From: a virus
Strand: one strand, 5' to 3'
Virus record (IMG/VR): IMGVR_UViG_3300028510_000022
Length of the DNA: 18,976 nt
A program made the position numbers and the translations under genes. How positions within the stretch are numbered: position 1 is the first letter of the stretch; every line of letters begins with the position of its first letter. Below the pieces are notes generated by a model. The model was not told the DNA's origin, did not search any database, and saw nothing but the letters and a program-made list of their open reading frames with translations. Positions 7,815 through 18,976 of the stretch are shown in pieces.

Positions 7815-8399
7815 ATGAAAGATTTATCAAATGCTAAAATATTAAAATATGATAGTATGTTAGAAGAAATCACTCTTTTCAGCTTTCAGGGTTTTGCCTA
7901 TGCTGAAGATGGTTTGTATTATATCAAATCAGCAAGTAAGCGACTAGGCGACTTGTCCAAGTTGTGGCTAAAGCTAAAGCCTATCAGCTATCATTTTGAA
8001 AGTATTGAAGATGAAACCTTCTGGACGATAAGAAAGAGCTACAAGCCTTTATTATCTACTAAAGCCCTTCTATATATCCGTTTTAAGATTGTAGGCGCTT
8101 ATTATAGCTTTGAAAAGTTAAACAGTAAGAGCAAGCTCAAAGGCTTTGGCAGAGTGATAGATGATAATAACTATTTCTCACGGATTCCACTAGTGAACGA
8201 GCTGACCCATTGGGACAATGGGGTTATTGTTACCCCTAACTATCAGATGGCGCTATCAGGCTTTAAAGATGGACGGGTGGCTATTCACGGTCAGCAATTT
8301 CTTGATGATTGGGCAACCTTTGACATCAATGTTACAAATGATAGAAAAGGAGTACAGAGAACCATCATGACAGCAGAAAGAGGACATGAACACTTATGA
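7815..8399 (+). CDS. Hypothetical late protein (194 aa)
   Basis: The ORF has an AAAGGG RBS and is translationally coupled (ATGA) to the next gene. I recognise no motifs. Confidence 0.6.
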   Translation: MKDLSNAKILKYDSMLEEITLFSFQGFAYAEDGLYYIKSASKRLGDLSKLWLKLKPISYHFESIEDETFWTIRKSYKPLLSTKALLYIRFKIVGAYYSFEKLNSKSKLKGFGRVIDDNNYFSRIPLVNELTHWDNGVIVTPNYQMALSGFKDGRVAIHGQQFLDDWATFDINVTNDRKGVQRTIMTAERGHEHL

Positions 8400-8716
8400 T
8401 AATTATTAACCTATCGGAAACACCCGATACACTACAAGTTGAAGTCATGGGACATGGAGACGATACAGACCAGTCTTGCGCCCGTGTATCAACCGTTTGT
8501 GATTGTATCTATTTAACCTTTAAAGACCAGTTAGAGAAATACAAGAAGCATAACGGCTACACACTTTTAATTGCTAACAAGAAAAAACTAGGACGTAAAG
8601 ATATTTTGCTTTTGCGCTTCCTTGAATACTTGGAAGCCTTGAAAGAACTCTATCCAAATTCAATCAAAATCGAAAATACAACAAACAAGGAGAAAACAAA
8701 TGGCAAAAACAACTAA
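8396..8716 (+). CDS. Prp-like (YsxB/DUF464 family) cysteine protease, probable prohead maturation protease, 106 aa
   Basis: The segment VMGHGDDTDQSCARVSTV matches the Prp His...Cys dyad pattern (GHA...DIVCAGAS in S. aureus Prp, also 106 aa). The C-terminal helix ILLLRFLEYLEALKELYPNSIKI parallels Prp LILQTMLVSLQTIEEEYNENIRL. Cp-1 is reported to encode its own head-protein protease. Confidence 0.65.
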   Translation: MIIINLSETPDTLQVEVMGHGDDTDQSCARVSTVCDCIYLTFKDQLEKYKKHNGYTLLIANKKKLGRKDILLLRFLEYLEALKELYPNSIKIENTTNKEKTNGKNN

Positions 8717-9688: not shown

Positions 9689-10444
9689 ATGACACCAGAA
9701 GAATTTCATGACGAGTTTTTCCGAAACTATCGGGGGCGCTATTCTTCTTACTGGGTGGAACGATGGGGGCTTATCCCTTCCATTCCTACCAGCTTTGATA
9801 ATGCTAACTCAATTTACGAGCTTTTAGCATGGCTTCAGCGTGCCTTTAAGCAGTTGCTTGATGATTTTGTAGCCCTTGAGAGTGAGTTTGAAGATTTTAA
9901 GAATGCTCTTACAGAGCTACTTGAAAACCTTGTACCGCTTTTGATTAAGCGCTACATGGAAAGCGCTGAAGCTGATAGATGGTTCACTGGTAAGGCTGAC
10001 AAGTATTATGAACGAGTTATCAAACCATACATTGATGAACAAATCAGAAACTTGAAAGAAAAGATTGAGCGAGATTTACGAGAGCTTGAAAATCGAATCA
10101 ATGAAAAACTTGAAGCAGAAAAACAAGAACGAATCCGTGAAATCAACAGCTTAAAGGAAAAGCTGGAACAAGAAAAACAAGCCAGACAACGAGATAAAGA
10201 AGACCTACAAAGACAAATCCAAGACCAAGCAACCAAAAACAACGATTTAAAAGATACGTTAACAAAACTGATTTCAAATCTTGAAAAATCAGGTGCATGG
10301 GCTGGAGGACTTAAAGGGAACTTTAAAGACGGTCGCAACATTGCAACAGGTAATATTAATATCTTTGGCGGTACGCCAGACGGTAACAGCTTTATCAGGA
10401 CAAACAACGGAAGTACAGAAAATGACCTTTCAGGAGGTATTTGA
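9689..10444 (+). CDS. Coiled-coil fibre/appendage protein, 251 aa
   Basis: The central region of about 90 aa is a heptad-rich charged segment (EKIERDLRELENRINEKLEAEKQERIREINSLKEKLEQEKQ...). The stop overlaps the next start (TGATG). The functional class is inferred. Confidence 0.6.
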   Translation: MTPEEFHDEFFRNYRGRYSSYWVERWGLIPSIPTSFDNANSIYELLAWLQRAFKQLLDDFVALESEFEDFKNALTELLENLVPLLIKRYMESAEADRWFTGKADKYYERVIKPYIDEQIRNLKEKIERDLRELENRINEKLEAEKQERIREINSLKEKLEQEKQARQRDKEDLQRQIQDQATKNNDLKDTLTKLISNLEKSGAWAGGLKGNFKDGRNIATGNINIFGGTPDGNSFIRTNNGSTENDLSGGI

Positions 10445-11199
10445 TGGCTTTAGAATTAAAATTTTCAACCAGTACCAATGCTAAAATAGAAAATTTTGGT
10501 ACTGGTGTACCAGCTTGGACGGAAGCCTATGCTAACGCTTGGCAGTTCTCAAAGGCTGATACAGATTACGGCTACATGACAAACGGGAATACAACCTATA
10601 TCCAATATGGACATCGTGACCCGTCAATTTGGGCTTCTATGCGCTTTTGGGGTCAATCCGTGGAAGTCATTGAAGAACGAACAAACCCCGATAATTCCAT
10701 TACAGCGAAAATCAGAGTAAAAGCTCTTTTCTGGTGGAGTAAACGGGTAAGCTCAAATGCTGGTTATCGTGTTAACTACGATATTAAAGTAAACGGGCGG
10801 ACAGTCTGGAGCTTTAGCGGTTATACAACCGATGAAGTGATTAAAAACGACGAAGTGGCTCAAGAATTTACGGTTACAGTTCAACCCGAAGAACGCTCTA
10901 GTGCTAGTGCTTTAAATATCAACGTTACTTACCCAAACGGAGAGTTTGACAATAACAATTTTTATGTGGGAATCTTCCTATATAATAATTTTAAAAAAGC
11001 GATTAAGCCTTGGGCTATCCGTAAGGGTGAAATCTTTAAGACCTTGAACCGCTCAAGCGGTTTCTTCAAACAGCGTAAAGACGGCTGGAAAGATGTGAGC
11101 GGTCAACCTACAAACGCAGTCGGGAAAGCCGAGAGCGCCCCTCACAAAATCAGAAAGTCGGGTCAATGGCTAGGACAAGGTCAGATAGGGCAACAATAA
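10444..11199 (+). CDS. Hypothetical tail/receptor-binding candidate, 251 aa
   Basis: A GGAGG site at 10433-10437 sits 6 nt before the ATG at 10444. The track TTG at 10441 is less likely. The gene is coupled to the fibre gene upstream and is followed by a terminator. Confidence 0.6.
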   Translation: MALELKFSTSTNAKIENFGTGVPAWTEAYANAWQFSKADTDYGYMTNGNTTYIQYGHRDPSIWASMRFWGQSVEVIEERTNPDNSITAKIRVKALFWWSKRVSSNAGYRVNYDIKVNGRTVWSFSGYTTDEVIKNDEVAQEFTVTVQPEERSSASALNINVTYPNGEFDNNNFYVGIFLYNNFKKAIKPWAIRKGEIFKTLNRSSGFFKQRKDGWKDVSGQPTNAVGKAESAPHKIRKSGQWLGQGQIGQQ

Positions 11200-11226
11200 G
11201 GGAGGGTTTCAGCCCTCCTGTTTTTA
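11200..11226 (+). terminator. Intrinsic terminator inside the late operon
   Basis: GGGAGGG (11200-11206), a 6-nt loop, CCCTCCT (11213-11219), then G and TTTTT. Confidence 0.7.
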
Positions 11227-11238
11227 AAGGAGTAATAA

Positions 11239-12726
11239 ATGAAGGAATCAACTAAAATCTGGTTATATGCCAAAAGCCCTTTTAAGAATGATTATGCGAA
11301 TGTTATTAACTTTGAAACAAGGGACGCCATGGAGGATTTTTTTACTAAAAAGAACCCTCATATAGATATTGTGTACGAGTATGACAAATTTCAATATACC
11401 CAAAGAAACGGCTCTATTGTAGTATCTGGACGGGTGGAGAAATATGAAAATGTAACCTACATGAGATTTATTAACAACGGACGGACTTACTACGCTTTTG
11501 TATTTGATGTACTATACGTTAATGAAGACGCTACACGGATTATCTACGAGGTGGACGTTTGGAACACCTACCAGCACGAACTAAAGGCGCTAAATGTAAT
11601 CGGGCAAGTAGAACAGCAGACCATGCCTAATGAGTTATGGGCGCTAAGAGATAGTCAGCAAGGCTTTTCAGTAGGGACTAAGTACGCAAGTAGAGCTGGA
11701 GAGGTTGGTATAGATACAGAGTGGCTTGTAGTCGTTGCTAAGCCTACTATTAAAATGACAACCAAAGCCAATAGACCTGTAAATATGAGTTTTTCAGGAA
11801 TGCAAAAAACCTTTAAATACTTTTTTATCCCTGTAAGTTTGAGAAAAGGGTCATCTAAGCCTTTTATCTTTAACGGTAAAAAGTATGATAGCTTTTACCT
11901 TGAAAACCTTTACAAACATTTGTTTGGCTTAAATCAAGACGGGTCAAGCACTGTAAACCAGATTGTCAATATGTATCTAAGCCGTGATATTGGGGTAAAA
12001 TACAAAGAGACAACGGTAGGGGATAAGACCTATATAGAAATCTTGTCAAACGTTGTCGGAAACGTTGCAGAAATTGGGCGCAAAAATCAACGGAATTATA
12101 GACCTTCTACAAGTTCAAGCGGTGGAAGCTCTAGCACGTCCGAAACAGGCGACATTTCAACGGAAGAAAGTAGAGTTAGACTAGTGACCCGAATTATTAA
12201 GAAGCTAGTACCAGACGCAACAGCAGAAGGGATAGCTGGAATCATCGGGAACTTTTCAGCAGAAAGCAACGTAACCGCTAAGAAATATGAGGCTGACTAT
12301 GCAACAGGCTACGAGTACGACAAAATGGCAACCCTTCCAACAGCTGAAAGCCTCGTAGGAAGTTGGGGCGCTTTTGCTGGGTTATACACTATTTCATTAA
12401 ATGAAGCTGGTTATAGAGGGTCAGACGGTCAACACTGGATAGGCATGGGAATTGGACAGTGGACAGGCTCAAGATGTGAAGCCCTTATCGCCTACGCAAA
12501 AGAGAAAGGACAGTCTGTTTGGGACTTTAACCTACAATTTAACTTTATGAATGAAGAAAGTAGAGCGGACACTTTTAGACGTGTAGCTAGTTCATCGGCA
12601 AGCGCAAGCGACAATGCAAGCGATTTTATGAACAACTGGGAAGGTGTAGAATACAAGGAAGCTGAACGAATTGAGCAAGCGAATGCATGGCTCTCAACGG
12701 TTCAAGATGAGTTAGGAAAGGTATAG
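11239..12726 (+). CDS. Tail knob N-terminal part (phi29 gp9-like) fused to a C-terminal phage-tail-lysozyme-like domain, 495 aa
   Basis: The N-terminal part aligns with recalled phi29 gp9 segments. PFKNDYANV aligns with PFSNDYKNT. YMRFINNGRTYYAFVFDV...YEVDVWNTYQ aligns with YIMFQN..KWFYAFVTEL...FEIDVLQTW. VNQIVNMYLSRDIGVKY aligns with VNDIVNMYVTDYIGLKL. A Ser/Gly linker (STSSSGGSSSTS) follows. The C-terminal domain carries GIIGNFSAES...GMGIGQWTGSR, typical of tail-associated lysozyme-like domains. Confidence 0.85.
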   Translation: MKESTKIWLYAKSPFKNDYANVINFETRDAMEDFFTKKNPHIDIVYEYDKFQYTQRNGSIVVSGRVEKYENVTYMRFINNGRTYYAFVFDVLYVNEDATRIIYEVDVWNTYQHELKALNVIGQVEQQTMPNELWALRDSQQGFSVGTKYASRAGEVGIDTEWLVVVAKPTIKMTTKANRPVNMSFSGMQKTFKYFFIPVSLRKGSSKPFIFNGKKYDSFYLENLYKHLFGLNQDGSSTVNQIVNMYLSRDIGVKYKETTVGDKTYIEILSNVVGNVAEIGRKNQRNYRPSTSSSGGSSSTSETGDISTEESRVRLVTRIIKKLVPDATAEGIAGIIGNFSAESNVTAKKYEADYATGYEYDKMATLPTAESLVGSWGAFAGLYTISLNEAGYRGSDGQHWIGMGIGQWTGSRCEALIAYAKEKGQSVWDFNLQFNFMNEESRADTFRRVASSSASASDNASDFMNNWEGVEYKEAERIEQANAWLSTVQDELGKV

Positions 12727-12729
12727 GAT

Positions 12730-14568
12730 ATGACTGAAGCAACACAAACACTAAAAGCCCTTAATGAAATCAAGTCAAGGGTGGGGACTAGCATAGGTAG
12801 CGGTCAGTGCTACGGGTTAGTCGCTTTATATTCTCAGCTTTTGGGAGGGTGTAACATCGGGGGAGGTATCAACACCCCGAACCCTGACGGAAACGGGCGC
12901 CAAGCAAGTGGAAGCGATACACAAAGGGGTATGAGTGCCAGTAATATTGGTGGCGATTATAACTGGGACGCCGTAGGCTGGAAAGTACGTTTTGACCCTT
13001 CTTTTTCTGATTTAAGAGTGGGCTGTATCGTAAACTATAAGCCAACTAGTAGTAATATCTGGGGGCATACAGCCGTTATTTCAGCTGTTAACGGTTCGAG
13101 CTATGACGTTATAGAACAAAACTACGCTTGGAGCGGTTACACTACGGAAAGAACAGGTATAGACACGGTGGATAACATTGAAAGTATTATCTACCCCCCT
13201 GAAGTGGTAGCTGGTGGAGACATCGGAGAAATCACGGGGAACACTGGAGACAGACAACTTGGAAACGGTGACTACACCAAAACAGCCTTTGACGTGGAAG
13301 CCGTTCTAATAGAAGTAGAAGGATTCTTTGACTATCGCCCCAACGTTTACGAGATTCCAAACTTGCTAGAGATTGCCTACAACCAGATACAAGACAGCTT
13401 ACGAGCTTACACTGGGAAATCTGACCTAGAAATAGAAGTGCAGCTGTTAAATAGTGAATTTACTGAAGTTGAATTGTATGACATTTACGGGAATAGTTAT
13501 GTATATCAACCGCAGTACCTACCTAGAACCCTTGACACAGGTCACAAGTATAAAGTCATTGTAAATGGTAGCCTTGGAGATAATAACCAAGTACACATCA
13601 ACTTTTTAGAGTATAACAACGCTAACAACCTAAGCTATGCGGATAAGAATATTTTAGAAAATATTGATACGAAAACATGGACAGAATACAACCCTGAACA
13701 TTTTAAGTATGGGCTTAATGATGTAACAGGGAAAAACATTGCCATTTTAAATGACGCTGAAGCTAGTTACATTCAGACCCATAAAAACCAAATGGAGCAT
13801 ACTCAGCTGACCTTTAAAGAAAACCGGGAAATGCTTAAACAAAGCGTGGACTTGTCAAATAAACAGGTAGCAACCGCTAACTCACAAGCTAGCTACAATG
13901 CCCAATATGCCGTAGATACAGCTAACATCAATCAATGGACTGAGGGAGCTAGTGGAGTTCTAAACGTAGCTGGGAACTTACTACAAGGTAATCTAGGGGG
14001 TGCTCTAAGTGGTTTGGCTTCTGGTGGTATGAAAGTTTTCAATGCTAACCGTGAATACAATAATAAACTAGTTGAGCAAGGGTTTACAGATACAAACAAC
14101 GCTTTGAAATCTCAATCTAATGCCCTTAACAACATGAAAGCAAAAATAGCCCTAGACCAGTCAATCAGAGCCTACAACGCAAGCATGGCAGACTTACAGA
14201 ATCAGCCTATCAGCGTCCAACAGATTGGGAATGACTTATCTTTCCAAAGTGGGCATTTATTGACCGATGTCTATTGGAAAGTATCAATCGCTCAAAAAGA
14301 AATTTTAGGGCGAGCAAACGAATACATAAAATGCTATGGGGTACTTGTCAATATCTTTTCTAATAATGCTTTAAGCGTTATGAAAGCCAGAAAGCGGTTT
14401 AACTACATCAAGATGATAAATGTTAACCTTGGAAACTTAAGAGCGAATCAATCTCACATGAACGCAATACAGGCTATTTTTCAGTCTGGTGTTAGAATCT
14501 GGAACTATTCAGCGAATAAAGATGATAATATTTTATTTGACATCAAGAAAAACAATCCGAATTTTTAA
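12730..14568 (+). CDS. CHAP-domain peptidoglycan hydrolase fused to the tail knob C-terminal part (phi29 gp9-like), 612 aa
   Basis: The CHAP domain shows Cys in GSGQCYGLV and His in WGHTAVIS, followed by EQNY. The rest aligns with recalled phi29 gp9 segments. KVIVNGSLGDNNQVHINFLEYN aligns with KIQVRGSLGVSNKVAYSVQDYN. NIAILNDAEASYIQTHKNQMEH aligns with [22 protein letters not shown]. The Gly-rich hydrophobic loop is GNLGGALSGLASGGM. The C-terminus RKRFNYIKM...IQAIFQSGVRIWNY aligns with RKAFNYVQT...IRTIFDNGITLWHT. Confidence 0.85.
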   Translation: MTEATQTLKALNEIKSRVGTSIGSGQCYGLVALYSQLLGGCNIGGGINTPNPDGNGRQASGSDTQRGMSASNIGGDYNWDAVGWKVRFDPSFSDLRVGCIVNYKPTSSNIWGHTAVISAVNGSSYDVIEQNYAWSGYTTERTGIDTVDNIESIIYPPEVVAGGDIGEITGNTGDRQLGNGDYTKTAFDVEAVLIEVEGFFDYRPNVYEIPNLLEIAYNQIQDSLRAYTGKSDLEIEVQLLNSEFTEVELYDIYGNSYVYQPQYLPRTLDTGHKYKVIVNGSLGDNNQVHINFLEYNNANNLSYADKNILENIDTKTWTEYNPEHFKYGLNDVTGKNIAILNDAEASYIQTHKNQMEHTQLTFKENREMLKQSVDLSNKQVATANSQASYNAQYAVDTANINQWTEGASGVLNVAGNLLQGNLGGALSGLASGGMKVFNANREYNNKLVEQGFTDTNNALKSQSNALNNMKAKIALDQSIRAYNASMADLQNQPISVQQIGNDLSFQSGHLLTDVYWKVSIAQKEILGRANEYIKCYGVLVNIFSNNALSVMKARKRFNYIKMINVNLGNLRANQSHMNAIQAIFQSGVRIWNYSANKDDNILFDIKKNNPNF

Positions 14569-14595: not shown

Positions 14596-15687
14596 GTGGT
14601 TTTTATCGAAGAACAAGAAAAATGGTACAACCCGCAGAAAATGCTAAGCTATAACCAGTATCTAAACTTTGTTATTGGTGGGCGTGGGATTGGTAAGACC
14701 TTTGCACTAAAAAAGTATCTGCTCAAGCGCTTTATAGACAAAGGGGAACAATTTATCTATTTAAGACGTAACAAGTCAGAGCTAGATAGAATAGACAAAG
14801 ACAAGTTTTTTACTACTGAATTGTTAAAACAAGTTTTTACCAATTTTGAAGTGATTGATAGTGATGCCAGCAAGATTCACACTAAAATTATTTTCAGAGC
14901 TGACAACATGGAAGATGAAGAAAATATCCTTGTCTTGTCTTCTACTAAGATAATTTTAAATGGTAAAATAGTTTGTTATCTCAAGAGCCTTTCTACTTGG
15001 GTTGACTTGAAAGGGTCAGAGTATGACGAGGTTATGAGTATTCTATATGATGAAGTTTTAATTGATGTTACCAGTAAAAAGAGGTATCTTGATAACGAGG
15101 TGGAAGCCCTACTAAACTTTATATTCTCTGTTTTTCGTAGGCGTGACGGTTGCCATGCCTACCTACTATCAAATGCAAGTAATTTCAACAATCCCTATTT
15201 TGCCTTTCTGAAATTTTATGACGATAGCGGAAAGCGCTTCTACAACATAAAACAATATGCAACGCTTATAGAATTCCCTCCACACTCAGCTTTTCAGACT
15301 GAGGAAGAAAAAGAAAGCGGATTCTTTAAGCTCTTGAGCAAGTCAAGCATTTATGAAAGCGTTGCTAACAATGAATTTCAGATAAAGAATGACAAGAACA
15401 TAGCGAAGATTAAGGGCTTAAAATCTAGGTTATATAGCTTCTATTGTGATGGTACTTTCTTGACAGGGTACTACATTGATAACATGGTATATATTGCCAA
15501 AGGTTTTGACAAGAATTTGACCGTTTATTGTCTGGAAGTGGAACAGGTAGAAGATGGATTTGTTTACTTGAACAAGTCAAGCGCTCTAGGTAAGACTTTG
15601 AGAAGTCTTTATCTAAAAAATATGCTCATATATGAGGATTTAGAAACAAAAAACAAATTTTTAGAGGTTATCAATCATGTTATATAA
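14596..15687 (+). CDS. DNA encapsidation (packaging) ATPase, phi29 gp16-like, 363 aa
   Basis: [46 protein letters not shown] aligns with phi29 gp16 [46 protein letters not shown]. The Walker A motif is GGRGIGKT. The start codon is uncertain, as described in the findings. Confidence 0.92.
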
Positions 15688-16093
15688 TATTATGTTAGAC
15701 GTTGCAAAAGGTGACTATATCACTTTTCTATTTATCTTGATTCTATCTGACTTTATCACGGGTTTTCTCAAGGCTTGGAAGTGGAAAGTTACCGATAGCT
15801 GGACAGGGCTAAAGGGAGTTATTAAACACACCCTTACATTTATTTTTTACTACTTTGTAGCCGTTTTCTTGACCTACATTCACGCCATGGCAGTGGGTCA
15901 AATTCTGCTTATCATTATCAATCTATACTATGCCCTATCAATCATGGAAAATCTAGCTATAATGGGTATCTTTATTCCTAAATTTATGACAGCAAGGGTA
16001 CAAGCTGAGTTACAAAAATACACAGCGCAACTGGATTCTGGAAAGGAACTAATGGAAGCATTTAAAGGAGCAAAAGAAGATGAAAAAGAATGA
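15677..16093 (+). CDS. cph1: Holin (Cph1-like, phage_holin_4 type), 138 aa
   Basis: Hydrophobic segments are present ([59 protein letters not shown]), with a charged C-terminal tail. The gene lies immediately upstream of the lysin gene and overlaps it. GAGGT sits 8 nt before the ATG. Confidence 0.8.
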
Positions 16094-17096
16094 TTTATTT
16101 ATAGATGTTTCAAGTCACAACGGCTACGATATAACAGGTATTTTGGAAGCGATGGGAACAACTAACACCATCATTAAAATTTCAGAAAGTACAAGCTATA
16201 TCAATCCATGTTTAAGCGCTCAAATTGAACAGTCTACACCAGTTGGATTTTATCATTTTGCCTGGTTTGGTGGAGATGTAGAAGAAGCAGAAAGAGAAGC
16301 AAGATATTTCTTGGAGAATGTACCTACTCAAGTCCCTTATTTGGTGCTTGACTATGAAGACCACGCAAGCGGAGACAAAGAAGCCAATACTAATGCTTGT
16401 TTGCGCTTTATGCAGATTCTTGCTGACGCTGGATATAAACCGATTTATTATAGCTACAAGCCCTTCACGCTCAATAATATTGACTATCAGCAAATTTTGG
16501 AGCAATTCCCTAATAGTCTATGGGTTGCTGGATATGGTTTAAACGATGGAAACGCTGATTTTGAATACTTTCCAAGTATGGACGGTATCAGATGGTGGCA
16601 ATACTCAAGCAACCCATTTGACAAGAATATAGTGCTTTTAGACGATGAACCAGAGCAAGAACCAAAGACAGCTGGAACATGGAAAAAAGACAGTACGGGC
16701 TGGTGGTTCAGACGTGCAAACGGCTCTTTCCCCTATAATAAATGGGAAAAAATCGCTGATATTTGGTACTACTTTGACAGCAAGGGCTATTGCTTAACGT
16801 CTCAATGGGTGCTATATAAAAATAAATGGTATTATCTCAAGGATAATGGCGCAATGGCTACTGGTTGGGTGCTAGTAGGCTCAGAATGGTACTATATGGA
16901 CGATTCAGGCGCAATGGTTACTGGTTGGGTTAAATATAAAAACAACTGGTACTATATGACAAATGAGCGTGGAAATATGATTTCTAATGAGTTCATCAAG
17001 TCAGGCAAGGGTTGGTATTTCATGAACGCAAACGGAGAGCTTGCAGATAACCCATCATTTACAAAAGAACCAGACGGACTTATAACCGTAGCATAA
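16080..17096 (+). CDS. cpl1: Endolysin: GH25 lysozyme with six choline-binding repeats (Cpl-1-like), 338 aa
   Basis: The protein is near-collinear with the Cpl-1 sequence as I recall it ([23 protein letters not shown]..., LVLDYED catalytic acidic pair, [22 protein letters not shown]). The C-terminal GW/WYY repeats are typical of choline-binding modules. Confidence 0.95.
16677..17060 (+). repeat. Six tandem choline-binding repeat units (about 20 aa / 60 nt periodicity) inside the lysin gene
   Basis: Protein repeats follow the pattern GWxx..WYYxxxxGxMxTGW. The DNA-level copies ggcgcaatggctactggttgggtg (16849-16872) and ggcgcaatggttactggttgggtt (16909-16932) are nearly identical. Confidence 0.85.
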
Positions 17097-18637: not shown

Positions 18638-18666
18638 ATTATATCATTTCACAAAACCCTTGTCAA
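18638..18666 (-). promoter_or_regulatory. Right early promoter (TTGACA, 17-nt spacer, TGaTATAAT, full consensus) straddling the ITR boundary
   Basis: On the minus strand, TTGACA is the complement of 18661-18666 and lies inside the ITR. The spacer is 17 nt. TATAAT is the complement of 18638-18643 and lies in unique DNA, with an extended -10 TG. Confidence 0.8.
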
Positions 18667-18731
18667 GTGTTTTGAGTAAATATTTTTAAATTATTTTTAG
18701 AAATGTTTCAACCTCATTTCTAACTATAACT

Positions 18732-18760
18732 AGTATATCATATACAGAAATAATTGTCAA
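18732..18760 (-). promoter_or_regulatory. Inward early promoter inside the right ITR (mirror of 217..245)
   Basis: Sequence identical to the left copy: TTGACA is the complement of 18755-18760 and TATACT is the complement of 18732-18737. Confidence 0.65.
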
Positions 18761-18804
18761 GAGATTTTTGAAAATATTTTTAAATTATTTTTAAAAGTTT
18801 TTTC

Positions 18805-18832
18805 TTGACATTTTTCTATATTGTGTTATAAT
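18805..18832 (+). promoter_or_regulatory. Outward-facing promoter inside the right ITR (mirror of 145..172)
   Basis: TTGACA lies at 18805-18810, the spacer is 16 nt, and TGtTATAAT has TATAAT at 18827-18832. It points toward the right terminus. Confidence 0.55.
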
Positions 18833-18976
18833 AGATATAGAAATAAAGGAAAGGATTTTTAGAGATGATAAGTTAGTGATTTTAGTTTTGAAAATAATTG
18901 AAAATGAAATTTCTCTTTCATTTCATTTTGAAATTTCCATTGGGGGAATTTTTCAAAAAGGGGTGGGGGAGTACAT

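Follow-up and report, generated by a model that had tools for sequence, protein, structure and literature searches.

Does a single stop codon in the middle of a phage tail gene mark a defect, a site of recoding or a genuine boundary between two genes? The question is raised by the IMG/VR virus record IMGVR_UViG_3300028510_000022, an 18,976-nt stretch of DNA (‘the window’) in which two open reading frames (ORFs), ORF1 (495 aa) and ORF2 (612 aa), lie in one and the same frame (12730-11239 = 1491 = 3 x 497), such that translation of positions 11239-14568 meets a single stop. The window is the complete linear, protein-primed genome of a new phage of the Cp-1 group, since it carries perfect 319-nt inverted terminal repeats at both ends (1-319 and 18658-18976), and its gene content agrees: beyond the two ORFs, it encodes a phi29-type DNA polymerase, a major capsid protein, a connector, a gp16 ATPase, a holin and a GH25 endolysin with choline-binding repeats. 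Over its full length, the 3.3-kb region under study shares ~80% DNA identity with the Streptococcus phages Cp-7, SOCP and Cp-1 (Cepunavirus). A first-pass annotation had read the two ORFs as the halves of a phi29 gp9-type tail knob with a lysozyme and a CHAP domain at the break, and had offered three explanations: a knob assembled from two chains, partial read-through of the TAG, or an amber mutation or sequencing error in an ancestrally single gene. The ORF list, translation and Pfam reproduced its coordinates, shared frame, TAG-plus-GAT spacing and domain calls; among its explanations, solely the first survives. We consider it about 80% probable that ORF1 and ORF2 are genuine separate genes, transcribed together and jointly encoding a phi29-type knob with an embedded two-enzyme lysin cassette.

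Homology of the two ORFs to a tail knob and to wall hydrolases

Pfam assigned aa 5-114 of ORF1 to Caud_tail_N (PF16838; E 7.9e-13; 49.4 bits at a cut-off of 27), a tail-tube-like beta-sandwich, and phmmer aligned aa 5-263 with residues 9-272 of phi29 gp9 (PDB 5fb4; E 8.6e-10). Queried by tblastn against 50,697 phage records, this N-terminal part matched gene 9 or tail knob genes in 123 of them. Since neither Pfam nor phmmer against the PDB—which for ORF2 returned the CHAP domain only—gave a match to the C-terminal part of a knob, homology of that part was established by BLASTP, tblastn and hhalign. BLASTP aligned ORF2 aa 236-592 with residues 335-598 of GA-1 gp9 (E 2e-12), and the C-terminal part also with phi29 gp9 residues 324-428 and 476-585. 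Compared with classical knobs, a Cp-1-group profile of the C-terminal part reached an hhalign probability of 99.2% (E 6e-20; aligned to gp9 324-585); an alignment that included rows of fused relatives (see below) returned an N-terminal match to gp9 only, contributed by those rows. In GA-1, Karezi, Chedec 11 and Sarmo, the N- and C-terminal parts matched one and the same gene 9 by tblastn, in the correct order. Likewise, ORF1 and ORF2 occupy positions 4-279 and 86-589, respectively, of PHROG 2248, a 590-position ‘tail protein’ profile (E 1.6e-94 for ORF2), and ORF1 matches a further ‘tail protein’ profile, PHROG 30532 (E 0).

A MAFFT alignment placed ~430 inserted residues, made up of ORF1 aa ~286-495 and ORF2 aa 1-~225, between gp9 residues ~288 and ~305. 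Downstream of the insert, two features to which the first-pass annotation had drawn attention, a Gly-rich loop and a conserved C-terminus, proved to have counterparts in phi29. The end of ORF2 (...IFQSGVRIWNY) aligns with phi29 ...IFDNGITLWH, and its Gly-rich segment agrees with the phi29 L-loop in sequence and position (gp9 ~426-476), suggesting by analogy the membrane role of this L-loop or channel loop (PMC6542822, PMC9710869). In the AlphaFold2 model of ORF2, helices at aa 342-417 and 423-487 form a ~146-residue hairpin, predicted with low confidence at its tip; here and below, AlphaFold2 models served for domain boundaries and Foldseek ranking only. On each side of the Gly-rich tip, the hairpin carries ~45-65 extra residues that are not in phi29 or GA-1 gp9 and that the alignment revealed to be common to all lysin-bearing relatives. 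The longer hairpin may have evolved to span a greater distance through the wall, or to plug a knob that is without a gp13-like cap.

Judged by these profile and sequence searches (5fb4, GA-1, phi29 and hhalign), ORF1 and ORF2 are assigned as the N- and C-terminal parts of a phi29 gp9-type knob, which bears out the earlier proposal. The window's knob is a split variant and not a canonical gp9 member: the latter has one polypeptide per protomer, with six protomers making up the tube, and here the protomer is encoded as two chains of ~55 kDa (ORF1) and ~68 kDa (ORF2).

With respect to the modules flanking the break, Pfam identified ORF1 aa 327-486 as Phage_lysozyme2 (PF18013; E 1.8e-21; 77.3 bits at a cut-off of 28.2), the same family that is matched by the N-terminal domain of phi29 gp13 (aa 17-158; E 1.8e-42). 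A direct BLASTP comparison of the lysozyme segment with gp13 gave a weak match (E 0.003). The ORF1 motif IAGIIGNFSAES aligns with ICGMLGNMQSES of gp13 and thereby places Glu342 on gp13 Glu45, reportedly the catalytic residue. This glutamate, within a GNxxxES motif, is invariant in 46/46 ORF1 sequences. On the other side of the break, ORF2 aa 25-131 form a CHAP domain (PF05257; E 7.2e-8; 33.3 bits at a cut-off of 26) that matches the streptococcal lysin Ly7917 (PDB 5d74; E 3e-15). Foldseek matched the ORF2 model to the CHAP domains of Ly7917, LysGH15 and LysK (E down to 3e-10), and Cys27, His113 and Asn131 are invariant in 59/59 ORF2 sequences. Residue invariance, as well as the selection analysis below, refers to these 46 ORF1 and 59 ORF2 sequences from related loci.

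We interpret the two modules as predicted muralytic enzymes for entry. It is improbable, in our assessment, that the two chains form a knob on which the lysozyme- and CHAP-like modules are wall-binding or structural decorations instead of enzymes. Such a role would suit the lysozyme segment in so far as this segment alone found no PDB match by phmmer and its equivalent in the fused relative P0122 is poorly modelled, with a predicted local distance difference test (pLDDT) score <50 at aa 352-454. Yet both modules exceed their Pfam gathering thresholds, the candidate catalytic residues do not vary, and relatives swap in a GH73 glucosaminidase, M23 or Amidase_5 at the same positions, implying selection for wall hydrolysis as such. 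Nor does the genome offer an alternative virion lysin: the Pfam scan of the window's ORFs detected no separate gp13-like gene and, apart from the GH25 endolysin, no gene for a peptidoglycan hydrolase. Together with the shared PF18013 family, this supports the earlier suggestion that the function of gp13 is built into the knob.

The stop codon between the two ORFs

The junction (12715-12732) reads GGAAAGG TA TAG GAT ATG. For comparison, we collected 70 related IMG/VR loci whose ORF2 products are 67-99% identical to that of the window; with Cp-7 and SOCP, this yielded 71 readable junctions. A stop is present in 71/71, being TAA in 58, TAG in ten and TGA directly followed by TAA in three, and so are the ATG and an upstream GAAAGG/AAAGG motif (71/71 each). 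The spacer between stop and ATG measures 3 nt in 62 loci, 2 nt in seven and 1 nt in two, such that ORF2 is out of frame with ORF1 in 9/71. Out-of-frame junctions recur across samples, as exemplified by GGATAGTTATG in L018, L044 and L070. The isolates conform as well: ORF18 and ORF19 of Cp-7 and of SOCP are direct orthologues of ORF1 and ORF2, joined by the same stop-3 nt-ATG arrangement, with TAA-GAC or TAA-ACA where the window has TAG-GAT. The authors of the SOCP genome list AAAGGGTAAACAATG as the ribosome-binding site of ORF19.

The shared frame in the window carries no signal beyond chance, because its prior probability is one in three and the spacer in relatives may be 1, 2 or 3 nt long. 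Since stop, Shine-Dalgarno sequence and ATG are conserved, TAA is the commonest stop and frames vary, sequencing error, a recent amber mutation and conserved read-through are excluded; the stop is a real, conserved gene boundary that involves no unusual decoding. What resembled recoding, a same-frame stop between the halves of a protein, is an ordinary gene boundary in the light of the comparative data, and the arrangement fits a translationally coupled gene pair. At the junction itself, a consensus scan gave neither promoter-like nor terminator-like sites, and promoter-like sites in the scanned region were fewer than in shuffled sequence. Protein trans-splicing and ribosomal bypass were also considered as ways of joining the chains and were dropped, there being no intein-like sequences and the junction being a plain stop, Shine-Dalgarno sequence and ATG.

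Programmed read-through of the TAG, which would yield a minor ~125-kDa fusion beside the two separate chains, is in line with the shared frame, with the mere TAG and one codon between the ORFs, and with the existence of natural single-chain homologues of ~1,100 aa, which imply that a fused product could fold. The distribution of stops nevertheless makes it very hard to sustain. A conserved leaky stop with a same-frame downstream ORF is not what the 71 loci display: 58 use TAA and three the TGA-TAA tandem, and in the nine loci with a 1- or 2-nt spacer, read-through would miss ORF2. Loci whose ORF2 products are 99% identical to that of the window use TAG-GAT, TAA-AAT or TAA-ATT, and the window contains no tRNA gene, hence no suppressor tRNA. 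Low-level noise read-through may occur in TAG-bearing variants, with no sign of selection for it.

The remaining explanation of the first-pass annotation—an amber mutation or a sequencing error, to which faulty assembly may be added, with one unbroken gene in the functional phage—has a precedent at this very locus. The 1995 Cp-1 record (Z47794) does contain errors here, which break the first gene, the ORF1 orthologue, into orf17 and orf18; the resulting three-ORF picture is a sequencing artefact, and the orf17/18/19 boundaries stem from these errors. (A Cp-1 interactome table names orf17 ‘Tail protein N’.) For the stop between ORF1 and ORF2, we regard the chance of such a defect as negligible, given that two isolates sequenced independently, Cp-7 and SOCP, share the stop-spacer-ATG organization of the window, as do 68 metagenomic contigs drawn from many samples, and that the ORFs on both sides of the junction are under strong purifying selection. 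This selection extends to all six segments (Nei-Gojobori omega 0.035-0.09): omega amounts to 0.035 for the knob N-terminal part, 0.09 for the Ser-rich linker, 0.065 for the lysozyme, 0.06 for CHAP, 0.06 for the second linker and 0.04 for the knob C-terminal part, values that are approximate, with dS (synonymous divergence) at ~1 and near saturation, yet all far below 1.

Fused and differently split relatives

When the knob C-terminal part was searched exhaustively by phmmer against 1.84 billion cluster representatives, 124 relatives emerged, of which 22 reached E <= 1e-30. These 22 comprise 11 fused proteins, ten of split type and one fragment. The fused set (P0122, P0124-P0126, P0128-P0133 and P0135) consists of single ORFs of 1,039-1,302 aa, in which Pfam identified hydrolase modules flanked by Caud_tail_N on the N-terminal and phi29_gp9_C on the C-terminal side. 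One of them, P0122 (1132 aa), contains exactly Phage_lysozyme2 and CHAP, and thus the window's four Pfam families in one ORF; the others combine a GH73 glucosaminidase with CHAP, carry M23, or combine GDSL with Amidase_5. The contig encoding P0122 (L076) shares the window's gene order of two ~245-aa genes, knob, gp16, holin and endolysin. P0133 (1,168 aa) is likewise one ORF, in two independent samples (L077 and L078) and with the same gene order, and the P0132 cluster numbers 157 member sequences. Endolysins of the related fused-knob phages are of the Amidase_2 or of other GH25 types.

A profile built from the 11 fused proteins matched phi29 gp9 in three stretches (E 1.9e-53), and further matched PlyCA (CHAP domain, E 5e-18), Ly7917, the Andhra knob and a GH73 autolysin. 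Profile searches returned two proteins with the fused alignment and nine with P0125; a P0122-based search for related IMG/VR loci found nothing. For the AlphaFold2 model of P0122 (pLDDT 59), the best Foldseek match was full-length phi29 gp9 (5fb5_B; E 1.3e-15), in an alignment that ran from end to end of the chain; the Andhra and C1 knobs ranked next. The window's TAG-GAT-ATG junction (TAGGATATG) stands where P0122, P0132 and P0133 carry a low-complexity linker of 25-30 aa, which is disordered in the P0122 model (aa 511-529).

Other loci are split in other ways, as three inspected contexts illustrate. In L080, a 494-aa ORF with knob N-terminal part and glucosaminidase overlaps by 4 nt a 565-aa ORF with Amidase_5 and knob C-terminal part; L082 has a 486-aa ORF of the former composition, a 42-nt gap and a 591-aa ORF with M23 and knob C-terminal part. 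In L081, the break lies after both enzymes: a 658-aa ORF with knob N-terminal part, glucosaminidase and CHAP is followed, after 22 nt, by the knob C-terminal part alone (415 aa). A third kind of arrangement is found in Enterococcus phage EF62phi (L084 4495-7681), where an unsplit 600-aa knob gene directly precedes a separate gene for a 459-aa ‘CHAP domain protein’; this could be an evolutionary intermediate. Two of these loci harbour small accessory genes within the late operon: L081 (3765-4118) encodes a 117-aa RyR-domain protein between knob C-terminal part and gp16, and L082 (639-1238) a 199-aa protein with a NAGPA domain, ahead of the appendage genes.

In a neighbour-joining tree of the C-terminal part, the Cp-1 group has the fused P0122 as its sister, in a clade made up mostly of fused forms; split forms turn up in various parts of the tree, and enzyme-free single-chain knobs fall outside the clade. 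The tree is without support values, and direction and number of fissions or fusions are accordingly not established by it. On the simplest reading of the sequences, a single-chain knob would have acquired the lysin cassette in one insertion event and then undergone several fissions at inter-domain linkers. Most simply, the Cp-1-group split would then derive from a fission in the lysozyme-CHAP linker of a single knob-lysin gene of ~1,100 codons. In this evolutionary sense, the ‘ancestrally single gene’ of the first-pass annotation is plausible, as the fused P0122 illustrates; as a recent defect it is not. The converse history, in which the split state is ancestral and the long single chains arose by repeated gene fusion, is unlikely, though less so than the other alternatives discussed here. 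Split forms with different peptidases do occur in several parts of the tree, and among the 22 close representatives they are about as common as fused ones. On the other hand, the outgroup of classical knobs (phi29, GA-1, P0144 and P0148-P0153) is single-chain, P0122, sister to the Cp-1 group, is fused and has identical module types, and break points differ by lineage—between the enzymes or after both—as expected of independent fissions. An ancestral split would in any case touch the history of the knob and not its present function.

Proposed working of the knob, locus features and comparison with known systems

Some observations weigh against the two-gene knob proposed here, beside the near-saturated dS and the unsupported tree already mentioned. 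The local Pfam scan (E <= 10) did not report phi29_gp9_C (PF20934), the gp9 C-terminal domain, on the window's own ORF2 or its C-terminal part; P0001, with 100% identity across the queried stretch (ORF2 aa 161-612), has a precomputed assignment to this family, which is also found in P0122, 50% identical to the window's C-terminal part. AlphaFold2 single-chain models are of low confidence (mean pLDDT 59-60), and by fold, the ORF2 model matches gp9 weakly (Foldseek E 5.6e-3; template modelling score 0.17). Finally, in the Cp-1 RefSeq record NC_001825, a transcription start named ‘PL6’ is annotated together with -35 and -10 signals (L083 1679-1710, corresponding to window ~12727-12760); it falls ~30 nt into the ORF2 homologue, counted from the true start of the latter, and, if real, is a misfit with simple co-transcription. 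A transcript from PL6 could not encode full-length ORF2. The window is without a consensus promoter at the equivalent place.

For the knob encoded by ORF1 and ORF2, we propose the following working. A ribosome would end at the TAG, and re-initiation, or a new ribosome, would start 3 nt downstream at the ATG served by its own Shine-Dalgarno sequence; such coupling would favour near-equal amounts of both chains. The ORF1 chain would comprise the knob N-terminal domain, the Ser-rich linker and the gp13-type lysozyme, and the ORF2 chain CHAP, a linker and the knob C-terminal part with the channel loop. By analogy with AlphaFold 3 models of two-gene knobs from Gram-negative hosts, the two chains may interlock to rebuild the gp9 fold, presumably with six ORF1 and six ORF2 chains surrounding the tail tube. 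The glycosidase would hang from the C-terminus of ORF1 and the peptidase from the N-terminus of ORF2, each on a flexible linker, and both would digest the glycan strands and peptide stems of pneumococcal or mitis-group peptidoglycan during entry. The embedded enzymes would thereby replace phi29 gp13 and the Andhra gp10 / P68 gp11 tail-tip lysin. As proposed for phi29, the long hydrophobic hairpin might then leave the channel and breach the membrane.

The features of the locus are compiled in Table 1. Between a 252-aa gene (10441-11199) and ORF1 lies a candidate terminator-like hairpin; in the equivalent gap, the Cp-1 record annotates a late promoter and transcription start, PL5. Downstream of ORF2, the gp16 packaging ATPase ORF (14596-15687, +) opens with GTG at 14596 in the mechanical ORF list, and its start is annotated later in Cp-7 and SOCP and earlier in Cp-1. 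The choline-binding endolysin suggests that the host has choline in its teichoic acids, as in the S. pneumoniae / S. mitis group. A 106-aa ORF (8396-8716, +) has a weak match to Peptidase_Prp, a cysteine protease (E 4.4e-4, under the Pfam cut-off), and may be a capsid-maturation protease; in principle, such a protein could also process the linkers of single-chain knob relatives. Inside the terminal-repeat regions are two further inverted repeats, shorter and imperfect.

Table 1 Positions of the two-ORF knob, its predicted segments and neighbouring elements in the window.
Feature	Position	Strand	Basis or remark
Candidate terminator-like hairpin, G+C-rich, then T run	11200-11219	+	Consensus scan only
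Shine-Dalgarno sequence AAAGGAG of ORF1	11226-11232	+	6 nt ahead of ATG; read from sequence
ORF1, 495 aa, ATG: predicted knob N-terminal part + tail lysozyme	11239-12726	+	ORF list, Pfam; orthologous to Cp-7 ORF18, SOCP ORF18 and Cp-1 orf17+orf18
Knob N-terminal part, ORF1 aa 1-~285	11239-12093	+	Homologous to phi29 gp9 residues 1-~288
Ser-rich linker, ORF1 aa ~286-315	12094-12183	+	Translation; low pLDDT in equivalent P0122 aa 294-314
Predicted gp13-type tail lysozyme, ORF1 aa ~316-495	12184-12723	+	PF18013; candidate catalytic Glu342 codon 12262-12264
Shine-Dalgarno sequence GGAAAGG of ORF2	12715-12721	+	Within last ORF1 codons; 8 nt ahead of ORF2 ATG
ORF1 stop TAG + 3-nt spacer GAT	12724-12729	+	TAG 12724-12726, GAT 12727-12729, ATG 12730-12732
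ORF2, 612 aa, ATG: predicted CHAP + knob C-terminal part	12730-14568	+	Orthologue of Cp-7 ORF19, SOCP ORF19
Predicted CHAP cysteine peptidase/amidase, ORF2 aa 1-~155	12730-13194	+	PF05257; Cys27 codon 12808-12810, His113 codon 13066-13068
Gly/Asp-rich linker, ORF2 aa ~156-204	13195-13341	+	pLDDT <50 at aa 166-202; without gp9 counterpart
Knob C-terminal part, ORF2 aa ~205-612	13342-14565	+	Homologous to phi29 gp9 residues ~305-599
Predicted long helical hairpin, ORF2 aa 342-487	13753-14190	+	Counterpart of phi29 L-loop / Andhra ‘channel loop’; AlphaFold2 and alignment
Gly-rich hydrophobic hairpin tip, ORF2 aa ~400-436	13927-14037	+	Alignment with phi29 L-loop
GH25 + choline-binding-repeat endolysin	16080-17096	+	Cpl-1-like domain layout

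A split of the gp9 homologue in Cp-1 is not new in itself, since the GenBank entries for Cp-7 and SOCP already list two ‘tail proteins’. From sequence, the split knob with embedded lysins appears common to the whole Cp-1 group and part of a broader metagenomic family. In the searchable literature, with older key papers beyond reach, we found no description of the lysozyme-plus-CHAP insert, of the break between the enzymes or of the wider clade of fused and split forms; on knob-lysin fusions or a Cp-1 tail lysin, we encountered general lysin reviews only, and prior mention is possible. For annotation of the Cp-1 group, our analysis suggests that the two ‘tail proteins’ should be read as a single knob, split in two, together with the phage's entry lysins, and that the gp13 function resides inside the knob instead of being missing. 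It also points to two unexploited candidate virion-associated pneumococcal hydrolases, the PF18013 lysozyme and the CHAP peptidase, beside the endolysin Cpl-1. Fused forms, forms split between the enzymes and forms split after them, all in syntenic genomes, amount to a natural experiment on gene fission and fusion, one that also bears on how well a hexameric tube tolerates large insertions. We see even odds for a more general proposition: that Cp-1-type phages and the wider clade build their wall enzymes into the ejection tube itself, with the knob gene repeatedly cut or rejoined at its inter-domain linkers, which in the Cp-1 group gave 6+6 knobs of two chains. If true, the fused and split versions would form a natural series, and the knob a third solution to attaching a tail lysin, beside phi29 gp13 and Andhra gp10.

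How does this knob compare with those already described? The deposited records of Cp-7, SOCP and Cp-1 label the orthologous genes merely ‘tail protein’. With phi29 gp9 (5FB4/5FB5), C1 gp12 and Andhra gp12, the window's knob shares the N-terminal tube-like domain, the C-terminal domain, the Gly-rich loop and the C-terminal motif. Whereas these three are single chains of ~590-610 aa devoid of enzymes, the window's knob carries a ~430-aa insert (lysozyme, CHAP and linkers), is cut inside that insert, and has a predicted helical hairpin about twice as long. Of the fused proteins, P0122 and P0133, whose contigs were inspected, sit at the corresponding place of a late operon resembling that of Cp-1, as a single ORF instead of two.

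As to the enzymes, phi29 gp13 follows the same logic of glycosidase plus peptidase for entry and has PF18013 and the aligned glutamate in common with ORF1. It is, however, a separate protein attached to the tip of the knob, whereas the window's predicted enzymes are covalently part of the knob chains and the peptidase is of the CHAP and not the M23 type; M23, the type reported for the C-terminal domain of gp13, is found in the fused relative P0131. Andhra gp10 and P68 gp11 (glycosyl hydrolase, linker and CHAP; PlyCA-like) display the same order of glycosidase, then CHAP, and the same presumed role in penetrating the wall, but form a separate dimer that is plugged into the knob via a helical linker; the window's knob would have one copy of each enzyme per protomer.

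A parallel to the split itself comes from Phanie, Astrid and DU_PP_III, phi29-like phages that infect Gram-negative hosts and build the knob from two adjacent genes, with inter-chain beta-sheets in AlphaFold 3 models (PMC11476376). As in the window, these genes correspond to the N- and C-terminal parts of gp9 and have further domains where the knob is divided. A 2024 review of phi29-like phages treats two-gene knobs as a trait of the Gram-negative lineage (PMC11476376); the present locus suggests that they are not confined to it. In the Gram-negative knobs, the extra domains are Ig-like, whereas in this phage of a Gram-positive streptococcal host they are predicted hydrolases, and the chain is split between them.

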